Positions 1,812 through 42,351 of a stretch of 45,686 bases of DNA are shown piece after piece. Position 1 is the stretch's first letter, and each line of letters starts with the position of its first letter. The DNA is from a virus. The notes beneath the pieces are model-generated. The model saw only the letters and a list, made by a program, of their open reading frames with translations, did no database searches and had not been told where the DNA came from. The stretch is taken from positions 1 to 45,686 of the IMG/VR virus record IMGVR_UViG_3300045988_032761; one strand, written 5' to 3'. The position numbers and the translations under genes were made by a program.

Positions 1812-1928
1812 AAAAATACCACGAATAACCGTACTTTACATAATATTGCAAAATCAGCGGTACAAAATACATAATCCGCATGAAAAGTGCGAAGCGTGGC
1901 GAATAAAGCTATTAGGAGGAACGATTCT

Positions 1929-2504
1929 ATGAATAAGAAAAAGGCTGTCGCAATGTTCCTGACTGCTACATTTACTTTGACTTCTTCTGTTCCGGTTCTG
2001 GCAGGCGGGAAGGACGTTACCGTTACTGTCCCAAGCTACGGGTTCGAAGAAGATGATGATACTTCATCAGTACCAGAAGCAAAGGAAGCTGTTGTAAACG
2101 AGGATGGCTCCATCACCTACACTCTCACAAAGAAGCAGCAAAAAGAATGGAAAAAGGCCGTAAAATCCAACTTTGATGATTATATCAAAGATATCCTGGA
2201 TGACGATACTAATTATCCAAACGTTGAGGACATCACATACAATAATGATATGACTGAGTTCGAAATTGATCTTGCTACTACTAATATAGCACAATCTGAA
2301 CTCTTCATTGGATACATCGCACTGTTTACAGCTCCGGTGTATCAGCAGGTGAATGGGGTGGCTGAAAAAGATGTTGATTATAAGGTCACAGTCAAAGACT
2401 CCTCAACCGGTGAAGAGACTGTATCAACTTATGCAGAAAATAAGGCTGACTGGGAAAGTCTCAATGATTCTTTCACCATGTACAGCGAAGATACGCAAGA
2501 ATAA
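1929..2504 (+). CDS. Secreted protein of unknown function (moron)
   Basis: ATG at 1929 with SD AGGAGGA. Signal-peptide-like MNKKKAVAMFLTATFTLTSSVPVLAG. The acidic mature part has no recognisable motif. Confidence 0.75.
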   Translation: MNKKKAVAMFLTATFTLTSSVPVLAGGKDVTVTVPSYGFEEDDDTSSVPEAKEAVVNEDGSITYTLTKKQQKEWKKAVKSNFDDYIKDILDDDTNYPNVEDITYNNDMTEFEIDLATTNIAQSELFIGYIALFTAPVYQQVNGVAEKDVDYKVTVKDSSTGEETVSTYAENKADWESLNDSFTMYSEDTQE

Positions 2505-2524
2505 TCAAACGGAGGAATAACAAT

Positions 2525-2713
2525 ATGGCTAAGAAAATCAAATGCCCACGTTTTGGATGCGGCAGTACTGACGTTGAATATCTGTCGGGCAACCAGAAAA
2601 CAACCCTTAACTTAAATCCGCTGCATCCTTTTACTCTTGTCAACACAAAGCCAAAGGGCAAACAAACATTCAGATGCAAGAAATGCGGGCGGGTATTCGA
2701 AGTAAAACTTTAA
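2525..2713 (+). CDS. Small zinc-ribbon protein
   Basis: CPRFGC ... CKKC pairs (two CxxC-type knuckles), SD GGAGGA. Confidence 0.7.
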   Translation: MAKKIKCPRFGCGSTDVEYLSGNQKTTLNLNPLHPFTLVNTKPKGKQTFRCKKCGRVFEVKL

Positions 2714-2722
2714 GAGGACTAT

Positions 2723-3484
2723 ATGAAACACGTATTTAATTTTTACAAAAAACATAAACTCGCAGCATTCTTTACAGCCTTGTGGTTTTTGTTTATGACG
2801 TGCATCACTGTTTCTGGATTAAGAAGTGGAAACGCCCAAGGCCCTGTCGAAGTAGGCTCGGGAATCTTTGCAGGAATCATCATGTTCATTCCCGTAGCAT
2901 TGATTATTGCTGCATTATCGGCAATGCTGTCAAAAATAATTGCCACTTTAAGTGAAATCATACATATTAACGGAACTGATAACGATGGTTTAGTTGACCC
3001 TGTTATTCCAGAATATAATTATCACTCTCAAGAGGAACAGCATAGCTGTCAAGAAAAACCGATTATACTTACACCTGAGATATTCCCGGAATTGGTTTCC
3101 GAACCAGAGCCGGAAATTCCACAACTCCCAGTATATGATACAATGGAGGGACACGACTTCGAATACTATTGCGCTGATCTGCTTCGTAATGATGGCTTTT
3201 ATAATGTAGAAGTCACACAAGAAAGTGGCGATCAGGGGATTGATATACTGGCAGAGAAGGCCGGAATCCGATATGGGATACAGTGCAAATGTTATTCGAA
3301 TAATATTGGGAACAAAGCAGTGCAGGAGGCGTTTGCCGGAAAGACGTTCTATCATTGCCACGTTGCAGCAGTTCTGACCAATAGGTATTTTACCCGTTCT
3401 GCGAAACAACTGGCAGAAAAAGACCAAGTACTTCTCTGGGATAGAGACGAACTCGAAAGACTCGTACAAAACGCTGAAAGCTAA
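2723..3484 (+). CDS. Membrane-anchored restriction-endonuclease-like (Mrr_cat-type) protein
   Basis: Two N-terminal hydrophobic helices, a Pro/Glu linker, then HDFEYYCADLL...ESGDQGIDILAEK...GIQCKCY...AVQEAFAGK...VLTNRYFTRSA. This is the Mrr catalytic-domain pattern (D...D/E-x-K). Confidence 0.8.
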   Translation: MKHVFNFYKKHKLAAFFTALWFLFMTCITVSGLRSGNAQGPVEVGSGIFAGIIMFIPVALIIAALSAMLSKIIATLSEIIHINGTDNDGLVDPVIPEYNYHSQEEQHSCQEKPIILTPEIFPELVSEPEPEIPQLPVYDTMEGHDFEYYCADLLRNDGFYNVEVTQESGDQGIDILAEKAGIRYGIQCKCYSNNIGNKAVQEAFAGKTFYHCHVAAVLTNRYFTRSAKQLAEKDQVLLWDRDELERLVQNAES

Positions 3485-3659: not shown

Positions 3660-4838
3660 ATGGCGAAGAAGCGAAAAAAATATCCAAAATTGCCGAATAA
3701 TTTCGGCTCTATCCGGTATCTTGGCAAGAACCGGAGAAACTGCTTCGCAGTACATCCACCAGCTACACCGGACGATAATGGTAAACTAAAACGTCCGCCG
3801 GCGATCTGCTACGTTGATGACTGGATAAAAGGTTTCACTGTCCTGACAGCATACAAAGCCGGCACGTATCAACCCGGCATGGAACGGACTCTTGAGGTGT
3901 CTCCTACGACCGATATAGATACCCTTATAAGTCGCTTAATTGCCGACTACAATACAATCAAGGGTGTAGAGGATAAACGCCCGGAAATCAAGAAATTGAC
4001 GTTCTCAGATGTATATGAGCAGTTTTACGCGTGGAAGTTCCCAGAGGGGACAAAACTGTCATACAGTTCAAAGGAAGCATATCGGACAGCTTACACAAAC
4101 TGTACTGCTCTGCATAATCGCATATTCGAAGATTTAAAGGCTCCTGATATGCAAAAGGTTATTGATGATTGTACGCTAAAAAAGGAAAGCCAGATGATTA
4201 TTTTAACTCTGTTCAAACAGATGTACAAATATGCAGTCTACTCAGAAATTGTAACGGAAAATAAGGCGTTATATGTCCATGTCAACGCCGATAATGACAC
4301 AGAGCATGGGACACCATTTTCCGATCAGGAATTGCAAGTACTGTGGAACAATACCGACGATCCAGAAGTGCAGCTCATTCTTATTATGTGTTACTCTGGC
4401 TGGAGAATTGGGGAAGTACTAAAACTCACAACTAACTTGGAAGAAAAATACTTTCAAGGCGGAATCAAAACAAAAGCCGGTAAAAGCAGAATTGTCCCGA
4501 TACATCCTGCTATATATCATTTTGCTGAACAGAAAGTACTGGCGCAAAACGGGAAGCTATGCGTATATACTCAGCAGCACTATAGAAAAGCGTTGTTCTA
4601 TCCTACACTGAAACGTTTGGAAATAGTCGGCAATCCGAAACACACGCCGCACGATTGTCGGCACACATTTTCTGCCCTATGTGAAAAATATGGCGTCCGG
4701 GAGAACGACCGAAAGCGAATGCTTGGCCACTCCTTTGGTGGAGATATTACAAACGCGGTATATGGACACAGAACACTGGAAGAACTCCGGGCAGAGATAG
4801 AAAAGATAGAAGTTCCGTTTGTGACTAATTGTGACTAA
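3660..4838 (+). CDS. int: Tyrosine recombinase / phage integrase
   Basis: C-terminal catalytic signature GWRIGEV ... HDCRHTFSALC ... MLGHSFGGDITNAVYGH (R..HxxR..Y). Confidence 0.95.
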   Translation: MAKKRKKYPKLPNNFGSIRYLGKNRRNCFAVHPPATPDDNGKLKRPPAICYVDDWIKGFTVLTAYKAGTYQPGMERTLEVSPTTDIDTLISRLIADYNTIKGVEDKRPEIKKLTFSDVYEQFYAWKFPEGTKLSYSSKEAYRTAYTNCTALHNRIFEDLKAPDMQKVIDDCTLKKESQMIILTLFKQMYKYAVYSEIVTENKALYVHVNADNDTEHGTPFSDQELQVLWNNTDDPEVQLILIMCYSGWRIGEVLKLTTNLEEKYFQGGIKTKAGKSRIVPIHPAIYHFAEQKVLAQNGKLCVYTQQHYRKALFYPTLKRLEIVGNPKHTPHDCRHTFSALCEKYGVRENDRKRMLGHSFGGDITNAVYGHRTLEELRAEIEKIEVPFVTNCD

Positions 4839-7096: not shown

Positions 7097-9433
7097 TTAG
7101 ATACATAAGCAAGGGACAACGCCAAAAGTGTCACTGGCATCGCCAGTGCCCGCATCCCCGTCTAAGCTCACACGACAGAAGGAATTGCTGCCGCTGGAGA
7201 AAGGCGAACGCTCCCAATAGTAGCCAGATACATAGTCACTGCCATGACGTGGTTTCTTATATCTATTGGCAGTAGCATTTTTAAAATACTGATATTGTTT
7301 CCCCTCTCCTGCGAAAGAATACGTTGTACTGCCAAAAATTTCAATTTCAGATGGTAAAAACGCATAGTCATTTGAGCTACCTCCTGATGTCTTTTTCTTG
7401 ACCTGCTTCATCATATTCTGAATATAAGTAGGCAAGCATTTCTTGTACACTTCATTGCACCATATACGTCTTTCACAGTCTTGCCAACCACCATCGTTTG
7501 TTCTTAAGCTATTCATATAACCACATTCATGTGATGTATCATAAGAACTGTTATATTTTGTCGTAGTGTCTAAATACAGCATACGTTCTGTCTGAATTGT
7601 AATAGCAGCTTTGGTCTTACCATTGATAGGAGTCACTAAGTCATCATGTTCAATTCCGATAATCACATAAGCGTAATCATTTGCTTTGTGTGACTCACTT
7701 ACACCCGTTGCAGACATTGCGTTATGATGAATGGTTCTCTTATCACCAACCGCCCAATAATCACCAATGTTGATTTTGCCTGCGTAATGCGCTTCAATCA
7801 TCTTTGTGATTTCAGCATCTGTTCCATCGGCAAATGTGACAATCTTCAAACCCTCTGGTTCACCGAGAAGCCTGTTTCCTGCATCGTAGTTGTATATGCC
7901 ATCGGTAGAATATGGAAACAATGTGAAGTAATATTTTTTGCCATTTGTCAGCCCTGTAACGGTATAGCCTGTGGTTTTGTATTTGTCACGAACTGTGTTA
8001 TCAACCACAAGTATTCCGTCATCTGGATTTGCAGGATAGCCCGTTTCTTTCATTACGAGTTTTGTACCAGCCCATGTAGAGGTTGTTGAGCCACTAATTA
8101 CAGTATTCTCTGGGTCTTGCCATTTAATTATAACTGATGCGTTCGCATTCTCAACCGTTGGGTTGTTTACGGGTTTGGGAGGGGTAATGGTTGCGCCACC
8201 GCCTTTTGCGTGGAGCGTTCCATCTTCATCTACGAATGTTGTCTTGCCGTCAGGCTTAATCTTGCCAAGAATTTCAATTGTAGCAATCGGGACAGTCGCA
8301 TCACTCCCCTTGTCTCCTTTTGGTCCTTTGATGTTTACTGTTTCGGGATTGGCAATTCCATCAGTGTTGCTCCAACTTATGTTTCCATCAGTATCCACAC
8401 TTGGGATAAATGTAGTGCCCTTGTCTCCTTTAGGTCCTGCACCCCCAACCTCTCCCTTTTCTCCTTGCGGTCCAACATCTCCTTTCGCACCCGTATCGCC
8501 TTGCGGCCCGGTAATATTTACCGTCTGGGGGTTTTCAAGTCCTCCATCATTACTCCAACTTATATTTCCTTTGCTGTCTACAACAGGAGTGAATGTGATT
8601 CCTCGCGCGCCAGTATCTCCTTTTTCTCCGGGGTCTCCTTTTACGCCCTGCGGTCCTGGGTCGCCCTTTGACCCTTGCGGACCAACCGGACCCTGTGGGC
8701 CTTGCGGTCCTTGAATCTTGCCGGCATTGTTCCAATTCGTGCCGTCAAAAACCCACATTTCTCCATTTATTAAATACGCGTCGTTCTTCTCTGCACTCAG
8801 GGGGAGGTCTGCCTCAGATTCTTTTGTACCAAGAATATTGAGAGATGTTCCGTCTTTTCCTTGTTCGCCCTTTTCTCCTTGTGGACCTTGCGGACCAACT
8901 GGCCCAACATCTCCTTTATCACCTTTTGGACCCGGCACTCCTTGAGGCCCTATAACATTCCCAACATTTTCACTATCACCATCTGAAAATGTTATTGTCA
9001 AATTTCCATCTGTGTCGATACTGACCGCTGTGATAGAGACACCCCTCAGTGATTCTTTCTGCTCAGGTGTCAGCGATTCAAATGCCACGGTGCCATCCAC
9101 GCCCTTTTCTCCCGGATCGCCCTTTTCTCCTTTTTCACCTTTTGGACCCTGTGGACCAGTAGGACCCGCTGCGCCCTTATCTCCTTTCTCGCCTTTTTCA
9201 CCTTTTGGACCCTGTGGACCAACAAATTCTCCGGCATTAACCATCTCTGAAATATCCTCAATGGAACACAACCGCCTTACATCATTAGCCGCAAATGCAA
9301 TGTATAAGGCTTTACCGGATGGAACGGACGGGTCATTGCCAAGAATCGCAACGGGCTCTCCGGGGCGAATTTTCGACGTATCAAAATCGGAGTACATACC
9401 GCGCCGGAATTGTATTGTATATGTATCAGCCAT
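7097..9433 (-). CDS. Tail fibre / receptor-binding protein with collagen-like GXY repeats and a lectin-like C-terminal domain
   Basis: N-terminal [25 protein letters not shown] (fibre N-terminal motif). Several runs of G-P-x-G-x-K-G-E/D. Two repeated ~38-aa modules ([23 protein letters not shown]). C-terminal [11 protein letters not shown]...[10 protein letters not shown]...GVVPCLCI. Confidence 0.85.
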
Positions 9434-22399: not shown

Positions 22400-22471
22400 T
22401 TGCAGGAGACGGATTTGAACCGCCGTTCTCAAGGGTATGAACCTTGTGAGATTCCGCTTCTCTATCCTGCC
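22400..22471 (-). tRNA. tRNA with CAT anticodon (Met; initiator-like features)
   Basis: Hand-folded cloverleaf: GGCAGGA-TA-GAGA-AGCGGAA-TCTC-A-CAAGG-TTCATAC-CCTTG-AGAAC-GGCGG-TTCAAAT-CCGTC-TCCTGCA-A. All four arms pair. U8, G18G19, U33, T54-T55-C56 and G53-C61 are present. Confidence 0.8.
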
Positions 22472-22797: not shown

Positions 22798-23352
22798 TTA
22801 GAGCATATCGCGGAGTTTTTCCACGTATCTCTTGACAAGATCACGTTCTTCCCGGCACTCTGCGTCCTTAGACATATCGCTCATTTCTGTAGTAAGCTCG
22901 TCCAGATGTTCTTCCAATGCAGCAAGCATCTTTCTCTTGCAATCCTCAGATTTGCCGGAACGATAGCTCTGTTTCTGTGTCATGTAGTCATCGTAAGCGT
23001 CTCGTCCGTCAGAACAGCTGTAATGCCCTCTAACATAATGCTCACCGCGTCTGGCATAAGAACTGCCACGGTCGTAATCCGGCATCATTCTGCCGTCATT
23101 TGAACTGTATCTCCCCATGCTGTCGCGCTTTCTTCCGCGCTCGCTGTAATCGTCATTGTATCCGCCACGCATCTCATCAAGGACAGCGTTGTAATACTCC
23201 GCTTTCTTGTCCCAGTACTGCGTATTCTTGATATCTTTATACATATCAATCAACTTGTATGTCATTTCCAGATTTCCGGTGGTTAGTCCACTGTCAGCAA
23301 TTTTGGACAGTTCATCTTCGATTCTTGTGCATAAGTCTTTAATATCTCTCAT
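22798..23352 (-). CDS. Hypothetical protein with a Tyr/Arg/Asp/Ser-rich low-complexity core
   Basis: ATG at 23352 with SD GGAGGTG. Central GRYSSNDGRMMPDYDRGSSYARRGEHYVRGHYSCSDGRDAYDDY, with helical ends. Confidence 0.7.
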   Translation of the reverse strand: MRDIKDLCTRIEDELSKIADSGLTTGNLEMTYKLIDMYKDIKNTQYWDKKAEYYNAVLDEMRGGYNDDYSERGRKRDSMGRYSSNDGRMMPDYDRGSSYARRGEHYVRGHYSCSDGRDAYDDYMTQKQSYRSGKSEDCKRKMLAALEEHLDELTTEMSDMSKDAECREERDLVKRYVEKLRDML

Positions 23353-23363
23353 AATCACACCTC

Positions 23364-23786
23364 CTACGCTTCTCTGGTCACGACAATATTTGCGTTCGCA
23401 ACAGAAATTGCCTGATCGCTTGTGTTCTCTACTGCAATATTAACGCAACATCCGCAAGGAACGTCAATATAGATACCTGCGGACACATTATTGTACTGAT
23501 TTACTGCTGCCGGTGTGGAAATCATCTGTGAAGATAATACAGGTTCGCCAGAGATTGCAATAGCCAGAGAAATAGCTCCGACAGTACCGCCTGTTGGAAT
23601 TGCGATATTGCCAGAAAAATCCACGAAGAATCTCGCTTTACACTGATTAGTCAGTCCTCTCAGAGTGATGATTCCGCTTCCCTCTCTGTGCTGAATGCAG
23701 TTAGAACCTTTAACTGCTGTGTTTGAAAATACTACATTTCCATTTGCTGCTACAGTCTGAACAGCTACATTCGTAAATTCTGCCAT
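23364..23786 (-). CDS. Stand-alone beta-sandwich protein, possibly TNF/C1q-like (BclA-C-terminal-like)
   Basis: Pattern ..VVFSNTAV..C..HREGSGIITLRG...ARFFVDFSGNIAIPTGG..GAISLAIAISGEPV...NVSAGIYIDVPCGCC..IAVENTS..AISVANANIVVTR resembles exosporium BclA/BxpB-type jelly rolls. This comes from memory only. Confidence 0.4.
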   Translation of the reverse strand: MAEFTNVAVQTVAANGNVVFSNTAVKGSNCIQHREGSGIITLRGLTNQCKARFFVDFSGNIAIPTGGTVGAISLAIAISGEPVLSSQMISTPAAVNQYNNVSAGIYIDVPCGCCVNIAVENTSDQAISVANANIVVTREA

Positions 23787-23806
23787 AATTTTTACCCCTT
23801 TCATAT

Positions 23807-23834
23807 CACAAAAGGACAGGTCTCAGCCTGCCCC
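23807..23834 (-). terminator. Intrinsic terminator-like hairpin inside the accessory operon
   Basis: Minus strand reads GGGCAGG-ctgaga-CCTGTCC followed by TTTTGTG. Confidence 0.5.
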
Positions 23835-23897
23835 TCTGTGTAATACGGCATAAGCCGACATTCGAATCAATCGAAAGATACTCTCGATATGAAGTTA

Positions 23898-24683
23898 TCA
23901 GCAATTGCATCCGGTGTTGCATCCGCATCCACATCCGTAATATGTGTTCGGGTTAGGAACCTGATATGCCGGAATCGGCGCCGGATTGATTGCATTAATA
24001 AGCTGCTGTGTCTGTGAAGCCATTGCAGTTGTGAGCAATGCGCTCTGGCGATCCTGAGAAGCGGCACGTCTGAGGTCATTGTTCTCAGCCTGCAAGTTAG
24101 AAATCTTTTCATTGCAAAGATAATCAAGAATTGCTCTTGTTCCTGCATTCTGGCTGTCAATAATGTCTCTTGTGTTGCTGTTCATCGTATTCTGCAATGC
24201 GCAGGTATTCTGTGCCATATTGTAGTTTACGCCCTGAATTGCTTCTCTGGTTTCGCAACAGCAGTTCGCAAGCTGCGCCTGGAGTGCGTTGGTGTTCTGC
24301 ATATTCGCTACAGTATCAGCATTGATTGCCTGCTGGATTCCAAATCCAGTCTGCATGATGTTCGTGTTGATTCCGTTAAATCCGGTAAGCATACCGTTAT
24401 TCATAGCATAAAAACCATCACAGAGTCCGCTATTGATTCCGTCAAGTTTGCTGATTACTGCGGAGTTATCGAATCCTCTCTGAATGTCTGCCTGAGTAGC
24501 TGCTGTGGCTGCGTATCCGCCGCCGTTACCATTATTTCCCCAGCCGTTGTTTCCCCATCCGCAGAATGCGAACAAGAAAAGCACGATAAGCCACCATGCG
24601 CCATCTCCGCCAAACATGCCGTCATTATTTCTACCGTTTCCAGTAGCGGCGGCAATATCTGCTAAGCTATAATTTCCATCCAT
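23898..24683 (-). CDS. Membrane-anchored Asn/Gln/Gly-rich protein with a Cys-rich tail
   Basis: TM segment AWWLIVLFLFAFCGW, then GWGNNGWGNNGNGGG, internal CCC, and C-terminal YYGCGCGCNTGCNC. SD AAGGAG. Confidence 0.75.
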   Translation of the reverse strand: MDGNYSLADIAAATGNGRNNDGMFGGDGAWWLIVLFLFAFCGWGNNGWGNNGNGGGYAATAATQADIQRGFDNSAVISKLDGINSGLCDGFYAMNNGMLTGFNGINTNIMQTGFGIQQAINADTVANMQNTNALQAQLANCCCETREAIQGVNYNMAQNTCALQNTMNSNTRDIIDSQNAGTRAILDYLCNEKISNLQAENNDLRRAASQDRQSALLTTAMASQTQQLINAINPAPIPAYQVPNPNTYYGCGCGCNTGCNC

Positions 24684-24712
24684 AATATAATCTCCTTTTT
24701 GTGTATTTACAT

Positions 24713-24728
24713 CAATCTGGCCAGATTG
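24713..24728. promoter_or_regulatory. Perfect 16-bp palindrome CAATCTGGCCAGATTG
   Basis: Lies in the 52-bp gap between the 73-aa and 261-aa genes. Confidence 0.4.
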
Positions 24729-24735
24729 TAATGTA

Positions 24736-24957
24736 CTATTTTATTCCTTTCAACATGTGTTGAAACTGTCCTGCCATCTGCTGGACCTGATTAAGTTGCT
24801 GCTGGGAAATCTTTCCAGACTGTAACATCTTCTGGACTTCTTCCTTCGGGTCTCCCTTGAAATTCTGCTTAAACTGCATAAACTGCTGTATCATCTGCAT
24901 TGGCCCGTTTCCCTGCGGCATCCCACCACCGAGGGCGTTAAATAATGGATTACTCAT
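24736..24957 (-). CDS. Gln-rich 73-aa protein, unknown function
   Basis: MSNPLFNALGGGMPQGNGPMQMIQQFMQFKQNF... Its start overlaps the upstream stop by 8 nt. Confidence 0.65.
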   Translation of the reverse strand: MSNPLFNALGGGMPQGNGPMQMIQQFMQFKQNFKGDPKEEVQKMLQSGKISQQQLNQVQQMAGQFQHMLKGIK

Positions 24958-25420
24958 CTGCGTTTCCTCCCTTGACTGCTGATTCCTGTGCGGTATTAGC
25001 TCTAACAGGTTCAGAAAAAGAATTTAGTCGGTTTATAATAGCTTCGTATTTGCCTTTTAAATCGTCGTATTCCTGCCTGGTGACATATTTACTGTCCATG
25101 CTTTGAACAGGCTGTTTAGGCGGCATTTGAGAGCCTACCTCGTGGTACTCAAACGTCCGTAACGGCTGTGGCATACCGGAAACGTCTGTGGATTTTATGT
25201 AGAACTTTTCGCTTTCACTGTCCATCAGTAAAACGCTTGTTCCGGGTGCTACCAGATAGGATTTTGCGCCGACTTCGCCGGATACCCACAGGATTCCATT
25301 ATTATTTTGCTGTGGTTGTTGTACTGGTTGAGCTGGCATCTGGACAGGCTGTTGCTGGAACTGATTCATCTGCCCCGGAACGCCAAAACTATATTGATAA
25401 GGATTGTTATATAATGCCAT
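24950..25420 (-). CDS. Protein with a Gln/Pro-rich N-terminus and a small globular domain, unknown function
   Basis: ATG at 25420 with SD AAAGGTGGTG. The track ORF up to 25741 reads through the intergenic promoter region. Core ILWVSGEVGAKSYLVAPGTSVLLMDSESEKFYIKSTD. Confidence 0.7.
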   Translation of the reverse strand: MALYNNPYQYSFGVPGQMNQFQQQPVQMPAQPVQQPQQNNNGILWVSGEVGAKSYLVAPGTSVLLMDSESEKFYIKSTDVSGMPQPLRTFEYHEVGSQMPPKQPVQSMDSKYVTRQEYDDLKGKYEAIINRLNSFSEPVRANTAQESAVKGGNADE

Positions 25421-25497
25421 CTTATGCACCACCTTTCTGATTATATTTTTGCATAGATGTATCAATCTAAAAAGTTCAAAAAAGTATCGGAAAAGTA

Positions 25498-25526
25498 TTG
25501 ACACACCACCAATTTGGTGGTATGAT
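25498..25526 (+). promoter_or_regulatory. Near-consensus promoter with a palindromic operator in the spacer
   Basis: TTGACA (25498-25503), 17 nt, TATGAT (25521-25526). The spacer contains CCACCAAtTTGGTGG (25506-25520). Confidence 0.7.
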
Positions 25527-25556
25527 ATAGTCATCAAAGGAACGGAGGAAACAGAA

Positions 25557-25988
25557 ATGAAAAAATACAACTTATCAAAAATCATGAAAAGGGCATGGGA
25601 ACTGGTTAAAAAAGCTGGAATGACAATTTCCTCCGGTCTTAAAAAAGCATGGGAGGAGGCAAAGCATATAGAAGAGACTATTGAAGAAAAACTCATTCGT
25701 CTCGGTTTTAAAGTTTGGGAAAAAGACGAAAAACGTCGCATTTACATTGATTATGTAAAGTATCTCGACGTTGTAGAATCTGATACAAATGCAGCTTTTT
25801 GTTTTACCGTAAACGGGATTTGTGTTGATAATTGGAACCGTTTTAAAAGAAAATATATTATGCAGAACATTTTGACCGGGTACTGCAAATTATATTATGA
25901 TCTTGTTGAAAACAAATGGGGCATGAAAACCGCTCCTTATGCTGAAAAAATCCTTACAACAGTAATTGATAAAATTATGGTTGCATAA
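25557..25988 (+). CDS. Cassette ORF1, unknown function
   Basis: SD GGAGGAAACAGAA-ATG. N-terminal MKKYNLSKIMKRAWELVKKAGMTISSGLKKAWEEAK. The track ORF from 25404 is a TTG read-through. Confidence 0.75.
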   Translation: MKKYNLSKIMKRAWELVKKAGMTISSGLKKAWEEAKHIEETIEEKLIRLGFKVWEKDEKRRIYIDYVKYLDVVESDTNAAFCFTVNGICVDNWNRFKRKYIMQNILTGYCKLYYDLVENKWGMKTAPYAEKILTTVIDKIMVA

Positions 25989-26008
25989 AAAGAATGGAGG
26001 AATGCAAA

Positions 26009-26164
26009 ATGGAAAAATACAACTTATCAAATATTATGAATATTGTTTGCAAAAGTTCCGGTCCAGTATATCATCAGATCTTTGTTCTGACTATTGCCGG
26101 AAAAAGCAATTGCAGATCAATCAATGTGAGGCAGATCTTCGCCGCGGATACAGGAGAAATCTAA
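26009..26164 (+). CDS. Cassette ORF2, 51 aa (frame ambiguous)
   Basis: SD GGAGG 8 nt before the ATG. MEKYNLSNIMN repeats the N-terminus of ORF1. The overlapping frame (25966..26223) also stays open and ends in an ATGA overlap with ORF3. Confidence 0.35.
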   Translation: MEKYNLSNIMNIVCKSSGPVYHQIFVLTIAGKSNCRSINVRQIFAADTGEI

Positions 26165-26219
26165 AGAAATATCTTGACGAGCGAGAAAAATATAAGGCCA
26201 GTCAAAGAAAGGATTGTAT

Positions 26220-26387
26220 ATGACAATTAAAGAATTGCGAAATTTTACTGGATTAAGCCAACGGGCTTTTTCCGATAAATACAAAATTCCTAAAAGAACA
26301 ATTGAAAACTGGGAATCTGGAAAAAGCAAATGTCCGGATTATGTGAGACAGCTGTTAGAGCGAGCTGTCTTGGAAGATTCAAAATAA
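26220..26387 (+). CDS. 55-aa HTH regulator (Aca-like), not in the ORF track
   Basis: MTIKELRNFTGLSQRAFSDKYKIPKRTIENWESGKSKCPDYVRQLLERAVLEDSK. XRE-type HTH with the ..TIENWE.G...P.. signature. SD AAAGGA. Confidence 0.75.
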   Translation: MTIKELRNFTGLSQRAFSDKYKIPKRTIENWESGKSKCPDYVRQLLERAVLEDSK

Positions 26388-26424
26388 AGCTGCTGAAAAC
26401 TTACAAGTCAAGGAGGAAAACAGC

Positions 26425-26655
26425 ATGAAATTAAATACATTATCCTACGTGTTAGGAAATAACGACACAATTGAAACTGGCAAAACCTATTATTTCGGCC
26501 AACTCTGGGACGGAAACGGGGACGGCGAAGAATTATTAGAATCCGGGGCGATTGCAGTATATCAGGACGACGAGGAATTTATTGTTGACTTCGAGATTCT
26601 GGAATCTGCGGAGGATATTTTGCAGACCCGGGTTAAGGTTATTGGGATTGATTAA
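26425..26655 (+). CDS. Small strongly acidic protein (cassette ORF4)
   Basis: SD AAGGAGGA. 76 aa, rich in D/E (DGNGDGEELLESG...DDEEFIVDFEILESAEDIL). Confidence 0.75.
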   Translation: MKLNTLSYVLGNNDTIETGKTYYFGQLWDGNGDGEELLESGAIAVYQDDEEFIVDFEILESAEDILQTRVKVIGID

Positions 26656-26671
26656 CAGGAGGAAAAAAGAA

Positions 26672-26866
26672 ATGAAGAAAACAATTGATTTATTGAATGA
26701 AGTTGTAGCAATGGGATTCGGCAGAGAGCAGGCGCTTACAGACATCGACGCAAGTCTCGACTCAGAACTTGAAGAAAGACAGCCACTGATGGATGAAGAA
26801 ATACCAGAAAGTCTGTACAATAATATTCTTGAAGGATTCCGAGCAGACAAGGAAATGAACGCATGA
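26672..26866 (+). CDS. Small acidic protein (cassette ORF5)
   Basis: ATG at 26672 with SD AGGAGGA. 64 aa (DIDASLDSELEERQPLMDEEIPE). Confidence 0.7.
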   Translation: MKKTIDLLNEVVAMGFGREQALTDIDASLDSELEERQPLMDEEIPESLYNNILEGFRADKEMNA

Positions 26867-27552
26867 AAGCAGTAATGATACAAGGGCATATGGATACCGC
26901 CCGGTTTTCAATACCGGGATGGAATGGCAAGCGGGGCGAAACATACCCACTTCCGCCTTTTTCTACAATTGCCGGGATGGTCCATTTTCTTTGCAGGTGG
27001 GACAGTTGGCATGATATGAAGATATCCGTATCCGGCAATGGAGTCATGAACAAGCCGGAAATTTGCATGAGGTGGCGCGGCGGTGCTGTTGCAGGGTCAG
27101 AAGCAGAAGAATTTAAGCAGCGGTTCCCAGTCCGGGTGAAATCTGGGGATTCGTTTGTAGGATGGGTTAATACACTAATTTATGAAGCGTTTGCCTCTGA
27201 TCTGGACCTGCGGCTGCATATTATGCCGGATAACCAGGAAGAAGTTGACGTAATTTACAGGAAAATCTTAAATCCCCGGACATTCCCAAGTCTGGGACGG
27301 CATGAGGACTTGATAAGAATTGACGACGTGCAGGTTGTCGATATTCTGCCGGCACAGGAAATGGCGCTTGATATGTGCGCGTATGCACCGTCTACAATTA
27401 AGGTACCCGGAACTGTTTACACAATTCACAAGGACTACGTGATCAAAAATGGAAAACGAAGATTTAATGACATTCCGGTGAAATATTTAGACCGAGGAAT
27501 GAAAGTATTTGCAGATTGTGATAATTTAAACAATCCTTGCTTTTTCCTTTGA
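26863..27552 (+). CDS. cas5: Cas5-like RAMP protein (type I, I-B/Tneap-like), orphan
   Basis: Three Cas5 hallmarks in the correct order: GHMDTARFSIP (A-x-F-x-x-P), ETYPLPPFSTIAGMVH, and C-terminal FPSLGRHEDLIRIDDV. At 229 aa it is about full Cas5 length. ATGA overlap with ORF5. Recognition is from memory of family motifs. Confidence 0.6.
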   Translation: MKAVMIQGHMDTARFSIPGWNGKRGETYPLPPFSTIAGMVHFLCRWDSWHDMKISVSGNGVMNKPEICMRWRGGAVAGSEAEEFKQRFPVRVKSGDSFVGWVNTLIYEAFASDLDLRLHIMPDNQEEVDVIYRKILNPRTFPSLGRHEDLIRIDDVQVVDILPAQEMALDMCAYAPSTIKVPGTVYTIHKDYVIKNGKRRFNDIPVKYLDRGMKVFADCDNLNNPCFFL

Positions 27553-27573
27553 TTTGTGTTATTATTCAGATAA

Positions 27574-27598
27574 CAGTTACGAATGTAACTGAATGTAA
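27574..27598 (+). other. Hairpin plus tandem GAATGTAA motif
   Basis: CAGTTAC-GAAT-GTAACTG (27574-27591). GAATGTAA occurs at 27581-27588 and 27591-27598. Confidence 0.5.
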
Positions 27599-27654
27599 AA
27601 TCAAACTGGTAATGAATTATTTTTAATAGTTCCATAGTGGAAAGACGCAAAATA

Positions 27655-27687
27655 AGCCCCTGAGAGATAATCCCGGGGCTTTTATTG
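27655..27687. terminator. Bidirectional terminator closing the plus-strand cassette and the convergent minus operon
   Basis: AGCCCC ... GGGGCT stem with TTTTATTG on the plus strand and TATTTTG on the minus strand. Confidence 0.55.
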
Positions 27688-27692
27688 TCGTC

Positions 27693-27899
27693 TTAACACA
27701 CTTTGATTATTTTATTGTTTACCCGGCGGCTTAACCGTTTCGCCGTGGATATACTCACATTCATCTGTTCAGCACAGTATTCGAGAGTGTGTTCCTTGCA
27801 TCTCAGCCGGAACAATCTTTCTTCATCCGGTGTAAAATTGCACTCTGTCAAGAACCTGTCTATATCTTTCTTTGTGAACACATATAATTTCATGAGCAT
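27693..27899 (-). CDS. Sigma-70 region-4-like HTH protein (68 aa)
   Basis: FTPDEERLFRLRCKEHTLEYCAEQMNVSISTAKRLSRRVNNKI matches the region-4 / LuxR-type HTH pattern. Confidence 0.55.
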   Translation of the reverse strand: MLMKLYVFTKKDIDRFLTECNFTPDEERLFRLRCKEHTLEYCAEQMNVSISTAKRLSRRVNNKIIKVC

Positions 27900-27913
27900 A
27901 CCCCTTACTAATG

Positions 27914-28219
27914 CTAACGTTGATTCTGCGCAAGATAATTTGTAAGTTTCTGTTTTGTTTTTTTTAATTCCTCGACGTTATTCCCACTGATCTGACTGTC
28001 CAACATGGTTGATAACACTTCCAGGATTAATGAATCTCGCTCTGCGATTCTCCGAAGACTTTCATAATCTCGCCTATCATGTTCTTCCAGTGTCTCTACC
28101 CGCTTATTAAGTCGGAATGCCGGAGCAATCCACTTAAAGATTACAGCTGCCGCCCCTCCGACAATGGACACCCCTCCGCAGATAGAGAGGAAAATCTGTA
28201 CAAATTCTGATATGCTCAT
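27914..28219 (-). CDS. N-terminally membrane-anchored coiled-coil protein (BhlA/UviB-like architecture)
   Basis: TM segment FVQIFLSICGGVSIVGGAAAVIFKWI followed by a charged helix. Confidence 0.6.
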   Translation of the reverse strand: MSISEFVQIFLSICGGVSIVGGAAAVIFKWIAPAFRLNKRVETLEEHDRRDYESLRRIAERDSLILEVLSTMLDSQISGNNVEELKKTKQKLTNYLAQNQR

Positions 28220-28223
28220 TTAG

Positions 28224-28604
28224 CTACTCCTTTTCCCAGTAATATACCGGGACTTCATTTCCACTATCCCATGTATCGAAATATTTGCCATCTTGTACCG
28301 TCACTACATGACCATCTATGCAGAGAATATATGTGCCTGTCGGATGGTCTGTACAAAAGTCGTTGACTGTATAGATATATCGCTCTGATTGTTCAATCAG
28401 TTTGCGTCTGTACCCACGTTTATAGAGGTACGCTCCCCAGACATAATTTGCACTTGGCATATCTGACAGAGCACACGCCTGTATCATTAATCCGGTAAAT
28501 ACTGTTTCCCAGTCGAAACCGGTTGCCTTGCATATTGCCCGGACAACGCAATCTCCAACTCGATTCCCGGCAGGATTTGGATTGTAAAATTCCCATCTAT
28601 CCAT
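28224..28604 (-). CDS. Small protein with a putative Cys/His dyad (papain-fold-like)
   Basis: GDCVVRAI ... CIDGHVVTV ... DTWDS. Start overlaps the upstream stop. Confidence 0.45.
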   Translation of the reverse strand: MDRWEFYNPNPAGNRVGDCVVRAICKATGFDWETVFTGLMIQACALSDMPSANYVWGAYLYKRGYRRKLIEQSERYIYTVNDFCTDHPTGTYILCIDGHVVTVQDGKYFDTWDSGNEVPVYYWEKE

Positions 28605-29746
28605 CAGTCAATCCCCTTTGCTGTTTTATATCTCTTTGCCGCTCCTCTGGCTTTTGCGGCGTTCTGGCGATTCCACTTTGCTATCATGAGTCGGTCTTGC
28701 AGTTCCCTCAGGTCGTTCTGCTTGCAGTAATCTTTGTATGCAGCATTTTGTTTTTGAAGAAGATAAGACTTCCGATCAAGGTCTTGCTGGAGTGCAAATC
28801 TTGTCTGCTCATCCTTACAGTTATCAACCGCCGCTTGCATTCCGAGAACTTCACGCTTTGTTTTGCGGATTCTTCGCTCATAAGTACGTTGTCTCTGCTC
28901 CTTTTCGTACTGTTTGCCTTTGTTGGCTTTGTCCTGTGCTGATAGTCCTGCATAGGGATTAAATTCTCCGTCACTTGCCCCAAAGCTATGCCGACAGTTG
29001 ACCCCTGACAATCCGCTTGCTGTCCCGTATCCGGTCAATGAGAACGGTGGAAATTTCTTACTCCTTCCAGAACGAGAGTATATCTTGCCTTGCCACCATG
29101 AGTGATTTCCCGGATTCTCGCCGCCGTCACCCGTCCTCGCTCCTATGTGCGCACTGACCAGAACTAAATCCCAGTCCATTTCTTCCATGCGTTTTAGGGA
29201 TATATCTCCCGTAGCCTGCGCCACGCCAGTTCTAACAGAACGTGCAACTGCTGTTTCAATCGTGTCTTTTCTGCCAGATGGATATGTGACAGTAACACCA
29301 TCTGATACAACGTTATTGACTGCCTCTTTGATGGCTTGTGTATATCCGACTGCCCCATTCATTACGTGATTATATGCAAGGTCGCATTGCTCGATATAGA
29401 GCCTCTGAGCGGCACTTGCGGTTGTTCGTGTGAAGTTCTTCCAATCTCCTAAACAGTGGTTCATATTTCGTTCCATGAGTCTTATCATAGCCGGGGATTG
29501 TTCGAGCGGTACAGGGCTTAATCCTGCCGCCTTGTATATCTTATCATCGTAATAGAGAGCAGTGATACCGGCATCTTCAAACGCTTCAAGAAGTTCCTGC
29601 TGTTCGCGTTTGGTATATCTGGATAATTCTGCCAGAATGTCCTCTAACAGCTCACCAGATTCCTGTAGTGTTCTGATTCTCCACGCGTCGGCATTGGTCA
29701 GAATATAATCCTCACCTCTGCCGATTCTTGCCATCATTCTCGACAC
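28604..29746 (-). CDS. Minor head / head-morphogenesis protein (SPP1 gp7-like)
   Basis: VSAHIGARTGDGGENPGNHSWWQGKIYS ... GVNCRHSF pattern. The start is unresolved (see finding on 29734-29838). Confidence 0.75.
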   Translation of the reverse strand: MSRMMARIGRGEDYILTNADAWRIRTLQESGELLEDILAELSRYTKREQQELLEAFEDAGITALYYDDKIYKAAGLSPVPLEQSPAMIRLMERNMNHCLGDWKNFTRTTASAAQRLYIEQCDLAYNHVMNGAVGYTQAIKEAVNNVVSDGVTVTYPSGRKDTIETAVARSVRTGVAQATGDISLKRMEEMDWDLVLVSAHIGARTGDGGENPGNHSWWQGKIYSRSGRSKKFPPFSLTGYGTASGLSGVNCRHSFGASDGEFNPYAGLSAQDKANKGKQYEKEQRQRTYERRIRKTKREVLGMQAAVDNCKDEQTRFALQQDLDRKSYLLQKQNAAYKDYCKQNDLRELQDRLMIAKWNRQNAAKARGAAKRYKTAKGID

Positions 29747-29919
29747 GATCTCAGAGATGATATACTGATGCAGTTCTTCCGCGATTTGCTCGCTGCCCTC
29801 TGTAATTTGCCGTAAATATTCTGGACTAAGTATAGCATATCACCTCTTTCGATAAAAGTCGTGGTACATGTTTTGGTTTTTTGATGGTTTGAGAAACATG
29901 ATTGATTCTTGTTTGCTTT

Positions 29920-41633: not shown

Positions 41634-42351
41634 TTGCCGCACCTTCTTTCGCATCGTAATTTCCATCAAGGACTTTCGCCATGTTGGAATCGCAGATCAG
41701 CCAATCAAAAGTAGCTGACCAGTTGCGCTTATTCGCGCCTTTCAGGAAGTCAGAAGCCTCTGCCTTTTCAAACAGTGTCTGGAAGTCATCAAGAGTATAT
41801 CCTGTCTTCAGCCTTGCGCTGATAGCCTTCTTCCTTGCATCAGACATCTTTACCAGGCGGGGATACGACCCACAAACGGAATTGTATAATTCACGAATCG
41901 TGGCATAGATGCTGCTTTCCGGAGTTCTACTCTCATAATCTCCTTTAGGAGATTTATTATATTCTTCCTTTCTTTCCTTCTTCCCTTCTTCTATTGTTGT
42001 CACTTGATTGTCACTTGATTGTCGATTGACTGTCACTTGATTGTCACTTGACTGATACTTATCATAGTTTTTTATTGTAATTACGCTGAATTTAGCGTGT
42101 CGGTTGCTTGTCACTTCTCCTGTATTTTCCAAATGTTTTAGTGCTGTTCTTACATTCCTGATTGTAAGACCTGTTTCTGCTGCAAGATTTTGCAAAGAAG
42201 TTACAAACGATCCTCTTGGTACTTCTATTCCCTGAAATCTTCCTGGCTTCCAGTTTGCCTTTAACAGAATGTGCAAGAACAGCGCCTTGGTATTTACATC
42301 CGTATACCATTCCCATTCAAGAATCTTCCTGCTGATCTTCACGTAATCCAT
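41596..42351 (-). CDS. Replication initiator / replisome organiser (winged-helix N-terminus, phage conserved C-terminus)
   Basis: MDYVKISRKILEWEWY...FLHILLKANW...GSFVTSLQNLAAETGLTIRNVRTALKHLE. Contains internal iterons. Lies upstream of the DnaC-like gene. Confidence 0.75.
   Translation of the reverse strand: MDYVKISRKILEWEWYTDVNTKALFLHILLKANWKPGRFQGIEVPRGSFVTSLQNLAAETGLTIRNVRTALKHLENTGEVTSNRHAKFSVITIKNYDKYQSSDNQVTVNRQSSDNQVTTIEEGKKERKEEYNKSPKGDYESRTPESSIYATIRELYNSVCGSYPRLVKMSDARKKAISARLKTGYTLDDFQTLFEKAEASDFLKGANKRNWSATFDWLICDSNMAKVLDGNYDAKEGAANDPEPTNSVRLW
41998..42052. repeat. Five tandem 11-bp iterons (putative origin of replication)
   Basis: tgtcacttgat / tgtcacttgat / tgtcgattgac / tgtcacttgat / tgtcacttgac, lying inside the replication gene. 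Confidence 0.7.

Follow-up and report, generated by a model that had tools for sequence, protein, structure and literature searches.

What does a phage do with a single cas gene? The question is raised by a cassette of ~2.2 kb in the 45,686-nucleotide (nt) viral sequence IMGVR_UViG_3300045988_032761 from IMG/VR, the whole of which (positions 1 to 45,686) we refer to here as the window. The last of the six open reading frames (ORFs) in this cassette, ORF6, encodes a homolog of Cas5, the Cascade subunit that holds the 5′ handle of the CRISPR RNA (crRNA). We refer to the gene as cas5h and to its product as Cas5h. A first-pass annotation of the window had proposed that this orphan Cas5 acts as an inhibitor of host CRISPR immunity. 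The gene is indeed an orphan in at least five phage or prophage backbones, but it does not stand alone, as a crRNA-like gene always lies behind it. With this constant association, a protein-RNA pair becomes a likelier mechanism than a single defective subunit. Our preferred reading, to which we assign a probability of roughly 0.5, is that ORF5, Cas5h, and the crRNA-like RNA together constitute a protein-RNA module directed against type I-B systems, in which a Cas5 resembling AcrIB3 is paired with an RNA resembling those termed Cracr and Racr.

A viral Cas5 homolog outside cas operons

The identification of the last ORF as a full-length Cas5 homolog held in profile, alignment, and predicted-fold comparisons. 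Cas5h matched PADLOC Cas5b models with E values of 4e-23 and 2e-20 and TIGR01895 with an E value of 7.4e-20 (71.5 bits, short of the curated cutoff of 96.7), and its match to Pfam Cas_Cas5d reached only an E value of 0.049. The protein aligned over its full length with cellular Cas5b proteins at ~30% identity, and the motifs ETYPLPP.ST..G..H and LGR.ED were invariant in an alignment of 38 sequences. A sequence search with Cas5h against PDB chains returned nothing. The 24 best PDB matches to its AlphaFold2 (AF2) model (predicted local distance difference test [pLDDT] score, 90.8) were type I Cascade complexes and stand-alone Cas5 crystals (4mjk, 4f3m, and 3vzi), with template modeling (TM) scores of 0.41 to 0.57 and E values of 4e-7 to 3e-4; these matches are by complex, with the chain not assigned. 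Judged by sequence and predicted structure, ORF6 is a clear but divergent Cas5b homolog, which has the RAMP fold and the motifs of a type I-B Cas5, remains below the curated profile threshold, and lies outside an effector operon.

The surroundings of the gene are those of an orphan. A tblastn search of the window with all eight proteins of a genuine type I-B operon recovered cas5 only, in agreement with the first-pass annotation, which had seen no other cas gene. Homologs 44 to 99% identical to Cas5h are encoded in several backbones that are unrelated to one another, including the 45-kb phage, a large group of ~77-kb phages, serine-recombinase prophages, and prophages in Eisenbergiella metagenome-assembled genomes (MAGs), and never beside other cas genes. 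Related phages might have carried cas5h within a full cas operon with an array, which would have pointed to a phage CRISPR system instead of an inhibitor; no viral locus contained other cas genes. The next relatives, at 36% identity or less, were cellular Cas5b proteins, among them P0048 (34% identical), whose gene sits in a complete cas6-cas8b-cas7-cas5-cas3-cas4-cas1-cas2 operon. In a neighbor-joining tree, the viral Cas5h clade was monophyletic in 100 of 100 replicates and stood on a long branch. The ratio of nonsynonymous to synonymous substitution rates (dN/dS) for cas5h was 0.08 to 0.16, indicating purifying selection.

The closest precedent is AcrIB3, a Cas5 homolog that enters Cascade and yields a defective complex in which DNA binding is blocked (Katz et al., 10.1101/2023.06.24.545427). 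Cas5h is likewise a full-length phage Cas5b homolog encoded on a mobile element outside CRISPR-cas loci and clustered with a helix-turn-helix (HTH) protein and small proteins. It belongs, however, to a separate clade. AcrIB3, with the sequence taken from Table S2 of Katz et al., was 33% identical to Cas5h, joined the viral clade in only 16 of 100 replicates, and nested among cellular Cas5b proteins (45% identity to Listeria Cas5b). Because the viral clade is separate from AcrIB3, which nests with cellular Cas5b, the Cas5h family represents an independent co-option of Cas5. The loci differ further in that cas5h is always followed by the crRNA-like gene and is usually preceded by ORF5, neither of which is reported in the published description of AcrIB3 by which we compared them. 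Four IMG/VR contigs of the Cas5h family (L118, L149, L156, and L157) are listed in Table S3 of Katz et al. as candidates, namely, predicted orphan viral cas5 genes with Blautia_A as the predicted host; the pipeline of that study removed candidates near predicted arrays (10.1101/2023.06.24.545427).

None of 50,697 GenBank phage records, searched for cas5h in isolated phages, contained the gene. The phage-database matches for AcrIB3 were only a complete type I-B operon under a Listeria phage label and a Fusobacterium phage. In the record OR846720.1 (“Listeria phage LM 4-11-1”; L182), the Cas5-matching region is a complete type I-B cas operon with an array of at least 15 repeats; the record contains either bacterial DNA in an unverified phage entry or a phage-borne CRISPR system.

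The crRNA-like gene and ORF5

A crRNA-like gene occupies positions 27574 to 27642, within the 140 bp that separate the cas5h stop codon from the terminator (Table 1). Genuine type I-B arrays beside real cas operons in the Firmicutes loci that we fetched, including those of gut Roseburia, Coprococcus, and Lachnospira hominis, are built of the 30-nt repeat GTTTTAATAGAACCATACTGGAATGTAAAT, or of sequences close to it, with spacers of 34 to 36 nt. When the two viral repeat halves were joined, they shared 25 of 30 positions with this repeat, and the 5′ handle was the best-preserved repeat part of the phage RNA. The viral pseudo-spacers are 19 to 22 nt long, versus 34 to 36 nt in the real arrays. Downstream of the second pseudo-repeat, the element continues with a tail that begins with AG and then runs into the terminator. 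From its sequence, the architecture is that of a mature crRNA or of the host RNAs of the CreR/CreA type. The similarity of the repeats also supports the earlier proposal of a type I-B host. The accompanying statement that the genome has no CRISPR array stands for canonical arrays, none of which occurred in the window, but it overlooked this single crRNA-like unit. At the element, Rfam searches matched neither CRISPR-DR nor any other family, whether at gathering or at permissive thresholds. A putative promoter overlaps the end of cas5h, and its TATTAT is kept in groups A to C of the viral loci (group C has TTGACA-17-TATTAT), suggesting that the RNA gene may have its own promoter. A hairpin within the pseudo-spacer was considered and rejected, as one within-group substitution was consistent with it and two were inconsistent.

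We found one to five crRNA-like units directly after the cas5h stop codon in 93 of the 93 viral or prophage loci examined, which represent 57 distinct downstream sequences. In the Eisenbergiella prophages, the repeats are intact, number three to five, and recur every 46 to 48 nt, which leaves pseudo-spacers of 16 to 21 nt. In the remaining lineages, the first repeat half has given way to a stem-loop that directly adjoins the handle and is unrelated in sequence. Where two units are present, this stem-loop splits the middle repeat into its hairpin portion and its handle portion. Ten different stems, including CAGTTAC/GTAACTG, CAATTAC/GTAATTG, CATCAT/ATGATG, CGTCAT/ATGACG, CAGGCG/TGCCTG, and CAGGTG/CGCCTG, all pair across the loci, and such hairpins occur at 8% of random positions. 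The first hairpin thus covaries across loci.

The second conserved companion of cas5h is ORF5. Among 103 viral loci, 98 encode an ORF5 homolog, and in most of them its gene has a 4-bp overlap with cas5h. ORF5 is better conserved than Cas5h, with 70% identity where Cas5h is only 50 to 56% identical, and it is likewise under purifying selection (dN/dS, 0.13 to 0.21). Its AF2 model (pLDDT score, 85) had no structural match, the best Foldseek E value being 1.9. A profile search of the whole library returned 110 small unannotated proteins, no fusion to Cas5, and a faint resemblance to UBA domains. The possibility that ORF5 is a fragment of a Cas protein was rejected, as its family hidden Markov model (HMM) found nothing in the ORFs of 79 host cas loci. 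The first-pass annotation had described ORF4 and ORF5 as very acidic, which they are, and had suggested that they may be further inhibitors. That suggestion found no support: ORF4 has no detectable relation to known anti-CRISPR (Acr) proteins, and ORF5 is a partner that is conserved together with Cas5, not an acidic inhibitor of a generic kind.

These observations bear on a first alternative, in which Cas5h is a stand-alone inhibitor of the AcrIB3 type that replaces the host Cas5 and leaves Cascade unable to bind DNA, with the RNA being either an independent anti-CRISPR or a captured passenger. AcrIB3 itself provides the precedent, the Cas5 motifs are conserved over the full length of the protein, and four contigs of the family have already been nominated as orphan cas5 candidates. 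Moreover, a repeat-like unit follows cas5 in gut Lachnospiraceae loci, from which a single capture could have produced the viral gene order. We nevertheless regard this explanation as unlikely, because the RNA has remained linked in every locus examined while Cas5h identity has fallen to 44 to 49% and the neighboring genes have been rearranged. In addition, strong constraint acts on the RNA itself, a new hairpin has taken the place of its first repeat half while the Cas5-binding handle was kept, and the viral clade is no closer to AcrIB3 than to cellular Cas5b.

The repeat-like units on the host side lie in the spacer between cas5 and cas3 of genuine gut type I-B loci from Roseburia, Coprococcus, and Lachnospira hominis (L039, 6714 to 6800; L056, 6693 to 6740; L057, 6723 to 6800). 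Their gene order is the same as that of cas5h and its RNA, which suggests where the phage module was captured. A metagenome scan for host arrays with the composite repeat recovered nothing but mini-arrays of prophages and a single spacer directed at the element. That spacer, TTAATAGTTCCATATTGGAATGTAAATTTAGAAC, lies in an array at positions 8950 to 8983 of the metagenome contig OGCQ01005281.1 (L184), whose repeat, GTCACGCCCCTCGCGGGCGTGTGAGTAGAAAT, we take to be type I-C-like; the spacer matches a viral type I-B pseudo-repeat and the start of its pseudo-spacer. Bacteria therefore target the element.

A second pairing of this kind was seen in Fusobacterium phage vB_FnuS_FNU4 (OQ808964; L183), in which an annotated “Cas5” of 355 amino acids (aa) at 1831 to 3180 is followed by a terminator and then by two repeat-like units, TTTAAATTCTAATCTAGT(G/A)ATACATTA. 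This protein is unrelated to the Cas5h family, and the arrangement hints that pairs of cas5 and an RNA may be more general.

Constraint on the pseudo-spacer and possible modes of action

In its variation, the pseudo-spacer resembles a guide more than filler sequence. We calculated nucleotide diversity (π) by element across 56 group B loci. Diversity was 0.182 at 4-fold degenerate sites of cas5h, 0.163 in the loop of the first hairpin, 0.105 in the second repeat half, and 0.00 to 0.03 in the hairpin stems. At positions 1 to 19 of the pseudo-spacer, it was 0.004, ~45-fold below that at synonymous sites. The remaining variation is patterned. In a guide bound by Cascade, every sixth base is flipped out and unpaired. 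Among the pseudo-spacers of the window and group B (window family, TYRAANTRGTANTGAATNA), the variable positions within the first 18 are 2, 3, 6, 8, 12, and 18, so that none of the three sixth positions is constant (hypergeometric P = 0.02). In the group C pseudo-spacer (TTAGANTGTTANYTATT), all four bases occur at position 6, positions 12 and 18 vary, and positions 1, 2, 4, 5, and 9 to 11 are invariant (P = 0.07). Variation at the positions that Cascade leaves unpaired suggests that the guide pairs with a fixed target.

Several candidate targets were examined and set aside. A 19/21 match antisense to cas6 in one host locus (L036) and a pattern match in cas6 of another (L088) fell at nonhomologous positions, and the 11-mer TTAGAATGTTA, present in cas1 of seven loci, reflects one conserved codon run and occurs at about the frequency expected by chance. 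A scan of the host type I-B loci with a periodic mask gave nothing above background.

This constraint is one argument for a second alternative, in which the RNA is the sole effector, a decoy or repressor guide of the Cracr or Racr type acting on host Cas proteins, and Cas5h and ORF5 stabilize or load it or are unrelated to it. The pseudo-spacer is under the strongest constraint of the region, Racr and Cracr RNAs work without viral proteins, and Clostridium phages have type I-B regulatory mini-arrays with no Cas5 homolog. The strong purifying selection on both Cas5h and ORF5, and their presence in 98 to 100% of the loci with this type of RNA, make this explanation improbable, and we place it below that of a stand-alone Cas5h. 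It is very improbable that the units are a mini-CRISPR array with which the virus, by means of host Cascade, excludes competing phages (superinfection exclusion): viral mini-arrays are known and prophage relatives have up to five repeats, but the pseudo-spacers are 16 to 30 nt long versus 34 to 36 nt in real arrays, they match nothing in the related phage sequences examined in place of the normal-length, virus-matching spacers of such arrays, and their near-invariance across many phages and the likeness of the copies within one array imply that they were not acquired from invaders. Equally remote is regulation by the hybrid complex of the phage's own genes or of a nondefense host gene, for example, in lysogeny control, for although the guide is constrained in sequence and the phage is temperate (integrase at 3660 to 4838), the pseudo-spacer matches no other part of the 45.7-kb genome above chance, sister phages do without the cassette, and an AcrIC5-domain gene neighbors cas5h in L008.

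Under our preferred reading, of a protein-RNA module against type I-B systems, transcription of the RNA would start at the operon promoter or at an extended -10 promoter of its own, and the transcript would be trimmed like a crRNA at the two hairpins. Cas5h, possibly with ORF5, would cap the 5′ handle of the RNA, and host Cas7 (~3 copies for a guide of 18 to 19 nt) and Cas6 would then load to give a short hybrid Cascade. This complex would draw Cascade subunits off immune crRNAs. It would probably also park on a fixed DNA site without cleavage, in the manner of Cracr and CreR; we propose such a site because the pseudo-spacer is strongly constrained and has a six-base rhythm. RNA processing, Cas5h-RNA binding, the role of ORF5, type I-B inhibition, and the identity of the target are what we infer in this scheme.

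A more specific version is tentative and, in our estimate, somewhat doubtful. Here, the viral Cas5, its own guide, and host Cas7 and Cas6 would form a short hybrid Cascade that is proof against Cas3, with ORF5-aided selectivity for the viral RNA, by its hairpin and handle, or no license for cleavage, and the fixed guide of 18 to 19 nt would lead the complex to a site conserved in the host, perhaps the promoter of a cas or toxin gene. Other viral cas5 loci, such as that of Fusobacterium phage FNU4, may encode “Trojan” protein-RNA effectors of this kind as well. If true, this would be an anti-CRISPR class that unites the co-option of a cas gene with the co-option of a guide.

Several points weigh against a protein-RNA module. 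Support for every step of the mechanism is computational. Searches for a target of the pseudo-spacer in the window, ~0.9 Mb of host type I-B loci, and extra gut type I-B loci gave matches at chance level only, and the host is only predicted, as Blautia_A for group B contigs. The pseudo-spacers of the Eisenbergiella type do not have the six-base pattern. The repeat-like unit after cas5 in host loci means that the linkage of cas5h to the RNA could partly reflect co-capture, not joint function. Finally, should Cas5h disable DNA binding in the manner of AcrIB3, a guide function of the same complex would be paradoxical.

The RNA can be compared with three known kinds of small CRISPR-related RNA. 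Cracr RNAs are viral crRNA-like RNAs whose short spacers lead to smaller complexes; they sequester Cas proteins, redirect them to cas or toxin promoters, and cooperate with a co-encoded Acr (Liu et al., 10.1101/2024.10.29.618823), and phage copies of type I-B regulatory mini-arrays have been described in Clostridium phages (Shmakov et al., 10.1101/2023.03.03.530964). The element at 27574 to 27642 has the same architecture, a degenerate repeat, a short pseudo-spacer, and a second degenerate repeat; like these RNAs, which are often encoded together with Acr proteins, it is viral, lies outside a cas locus, and is sometimes multiplexed. Cracr RNAs are, however, defined by a match of at least 9 nt, proximal to the protospacer-adjacent motif (PAM), to a host CreR/CreA spacer or to a cas or creT promoter, and no significant match of this kind was found in 87 host loci, among which the true host locus is not included. 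Two further differences are that the first repeat half here is an unrelated stem-loop in most lineages and that no Cracr has been reported with a viral Cas5, which Liu et al. never mention (10.1101/2024.10.29.618823).

Racr RNAs are repeat mimics from phage anti-defense loci that sequester Cas proteins, and RacrIC1 and AcrIC5 share a transcript (Camara-Wilpert et al. 2023, PMC10651486). The viral element is also a repeat mimic with possible acr cotranscription: in L008, the gene that overlaps the start of cas5h passes the Pfam AcrIC5 gathering score (29.3 versus 27 bits). This neighbor, like the bacterial spacer against the element and the pairing in FNU4, is context that favors an anti-CRISPR role. 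In contrast, Racr RNAs are solitary repeat units with a Cas6-binding hairpin that are not associated with cas genes, and RacrIF1 lacks a 5′ handle, so that its complex is without Cas5 and Cas8 (PMC10651486). In the phage loci, the unit has a handle in addition to the 3′ repeat half, and the handle is the part kept best and a Cas5 is co-encoded in all loci.

Host CreR/CreA mini-arrays share the design of handle, pseudo-spacer, truncated repeat, and terminator. Units of this type lie upstream of host cas6 in L036 (2455 to 2530), L047 (129 to 205), L057 (~2364, minus strand), L064, L082, L091/L094, and L096, and they are found near cas6 in 27% of type I-B loci (10.1101/2023.03.03.530964). They differ from the viral unit in that they lie within, and regulate, a complete cas locus, whereas the phage that carries the viral unit has only one cas gene.

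As far as we can tell, the coupling of a viral Cas5 to a crRNA-like RNA has no description in the searchable literature. The parts are of known kinds; what appears to be new is that they are combined in a fixed manner, that the first hairpin has been rebuilt, and that ORF5 is a partner. Until now, descriptions of viral cas homologs and of viral crRNA mimics have treated the two as distinct anti-CRISPR strategies, and here they are genetically locked together in a large and abundant family of human gut phages. Since the co-encoded Cas subunit is the binder of the part of the RNA that is kept best, the locus offers a testable model for how a type I effector could be privatized or redirected. It also suggests that screens for orphan cas genes that discard array-like neighbors may miss RNA partners. 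At ~1 kb, the module is attractive for switching off or reprogramming type I-B systems in Clostridia and Lachnospiraceae.

The accessory cassette and its genome

The window phage is a temperate siphovirus-like phage of the human gut in which, besides the integrase, genes for an endolysin and for major head, scaffold, minor head, and portal proteins were recognized. Nearly all of its genes are on the minus strand, and the cassette lies on the plus strand amid minus-strand head genes. The first-pass description of a self-contained unit was borne out in its promoter, six ORFs, and terminator and by comparison with two sister phages. In MT835739.1 (L187), 57 bp take the place of the cassette between flanks (22802 to 25455 and 27697 to 29874) that are 86 to 88% identical. 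In MT839401.1 (L188), which has the same flanks, the promoter position, an ORF3 homolog, and the terminator are kept and four other genes are present with no cas5; this cargo, at 453 to 1990, encodes an acidic-tailed protein of 119 aa, a 59-aa HTH protein, a 106-aa ORF1-like protein, and a protein of 97 aa. The cassette is a discrete, removable insertion, and its site is a variable accessory hotspot. The best explanation is that it is an accessory counter-defense island of a temperate Lachnospiraceae gut phage.

Table 1. Features of the cassette, with positions in the window
Feature	Positions	Strand	Remarks
Whole accessory cassette	25456-27696	+	Indel versus sister phage
Operon promoter, TTGACA-17-TATGAT	25498-25526	+	11/12 consensus; TG extension
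Candidate operator, perfect palindrome CCACCAAtTTGGTGG	25506-25520	.	In promoter spacer; sole copy in window
ORF1, 143 aa, basic	25557-25988	+	Only weak family matches; only in this phage type
ORF2, 51 aa	26009-26164	+	Shine-Dalgarno sequence and first 32 nt ~91% identical to those of ORF1 (25544-25590), then divergent
ORF3, 55-aa XRE/MqsA-type HTH	26220-26387	+	HTH_19, E 8.5e-7; HTH_3; MqsA-family HTH, E 1.4e-6
ORF4, 76 aa, isoelectric point (pI) 4.05	26425-26655	+	Frequent companion of ORF5-ORF6
ORF5, 64 aa, pI 4.10, predicted three-helix, UBA-like N terminus	26672-26866	+	Conserved partner of viral Cas5
ORF6 (cas5h), viral Cas5b homolog, 229 aa	26863-27552	+	ATGA overlap with ORF5
Possible RNA-gene promoter, TTGCTT-17-TATTAT	27537-27565	+	Extended -10, TGtTATTAT; read from sequence; under scan threshold
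Pseudo-repeat 1, stem-loop CAGTTAC-GAAT-GTAACTG	27574-27591	+	Abuts handle; in minimum free energy and centroid folds
Type I-B 5′ handle, 8 nt, AUGUAAAA	27593-27600	+	Identical to last 8 nt of genuine repeats GTTTTAATAGAACCATACTGGAATGTAAAT; one A precedes
Pseudo-spacer core, 19 nt, TCAAACTGGTAATGAATTA	27601-27619	+	Homologous to group B pseudo-spacer
Pseudo-repeat 2, TTTTTAATAGTTCCATAGTGGAA	27620-27642	+	5′ two-thirds of type I-B repeat; Cas6-type hairpin; ends at processing site
Bidirectional intrinsic terminator	27649-27686	.	Inverted repeat 27648-27660/27675-27687; GC stem; T-run; in predicted fold

The coordinates given in the first-pass annotation agreed with ours for four of the six ORFs, including the ATGA overlap, and the starts of ORF1 and ORF5 were one base off. 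Its promoter (-35 at 25498 to 25503 and -10 at 25521 to 25526) was the top site of the region in a promoter scan. The reading of ORF3 as an XRE-type HTH protein was supported by HTH_19 and by HTH_3, for which the score was 24.1 bits against a cutoff of 23. Comparison with L188 lent weight to the further proposal that ORF3 is an anti-CRISPR-associated (Aca) repressor acting at the palindrome. The L188 promoter spacer has TCACTCAtTGAGTGA at the matching place, which differs from the window palindrome at three positions, each mirrored in the other arm, and this dyad stays perfect though the L188 ORF3 homolog has diverged. Mirrored changes that preserve the dyad are good comparative evidence for the binding site of a dimeric protein. 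That protein would most simply be the co-encoded ORF3, which probably represses the operon promoter at this candidate operator. The arrangement resembles Aca-controlled acr operons in its strong promoter with an inverted repeat, in the small HTH protein encoded within its presumed target operon, and in cargo that varies among sister phages; it differs in that the HTH gene is third and not last.

The remaining genes of the cassette are less constant. Across the 103 loci, ORF1 to ORF3 were found in this phage type only, and ORF4 accompanies ORF5 and ORF6 in 56. A resemblance of ORF1 to AcrIIA3 is kept as a weak lead, as only the N-terminal 40 aa match NF033948, with an E value of 0.032 that is below the cutoff. 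ORF2 had no family match in profile searches; it stays at 51 aa in all contigs of the same phage, and a second frame extends to 26223. From its sequence, ORF2 is probably a decayed paralog of the 5′ end of ORF1, or else a recombination scar. The homologs of ORF4 form 404 clusters, none of which is annotated. A blastp match of ORF4 to AcrIB6 (E value of 6e-4 in a 24-sequence database) was rejected, with an hhalign probability of 3.6%.

The terminator had been called bidirectional, in keeping with its inverted repeat and T-run; with its 14-nt loop, it escaped a simple terminator scan. Directly past it, and convergent with the cassette, is a gene at 27693 to 27899 (minus strand) for a 68-aa protein with a sigma-70 region-4-like HTH, which shares the terminator and is kept in the sister phages.

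Close GenBank relatives of the window are solely unannotated “Bacteriophage sp.” contigs from human feces. In the assembly collection, 491 blocks contain the exact ORF5 protein, 160 of them with contigs of 20 to 50 kb, and the window phage thus recurs in very many gut metagenomes. Elsewhere in the window, five tandem 11-bp iterons, TTGTCACTTGA, lie among early genes at 41997 to 42051 and are probably, from their sequence, a replication origin. Collagen-like 9-bp periodic repeats occur at 8300 to 9230 within a minus-strand ORF of tail-fiber size (7097 to 9433, 778 aa), and a tRNA-Met (CAT) gene lies between head genes at 22400 to 22471 on the minus strand. Related phages have tRNA gene clusters 3′ of the module and, at Rfam gathering scores, a type II hammerhead ribozyme, a RAGATH-27 RNA, and two int-alpA RNAs (L021, 2715 to 2781, minus strand; L008, 8701 to 8782 and 10136 to 10618).

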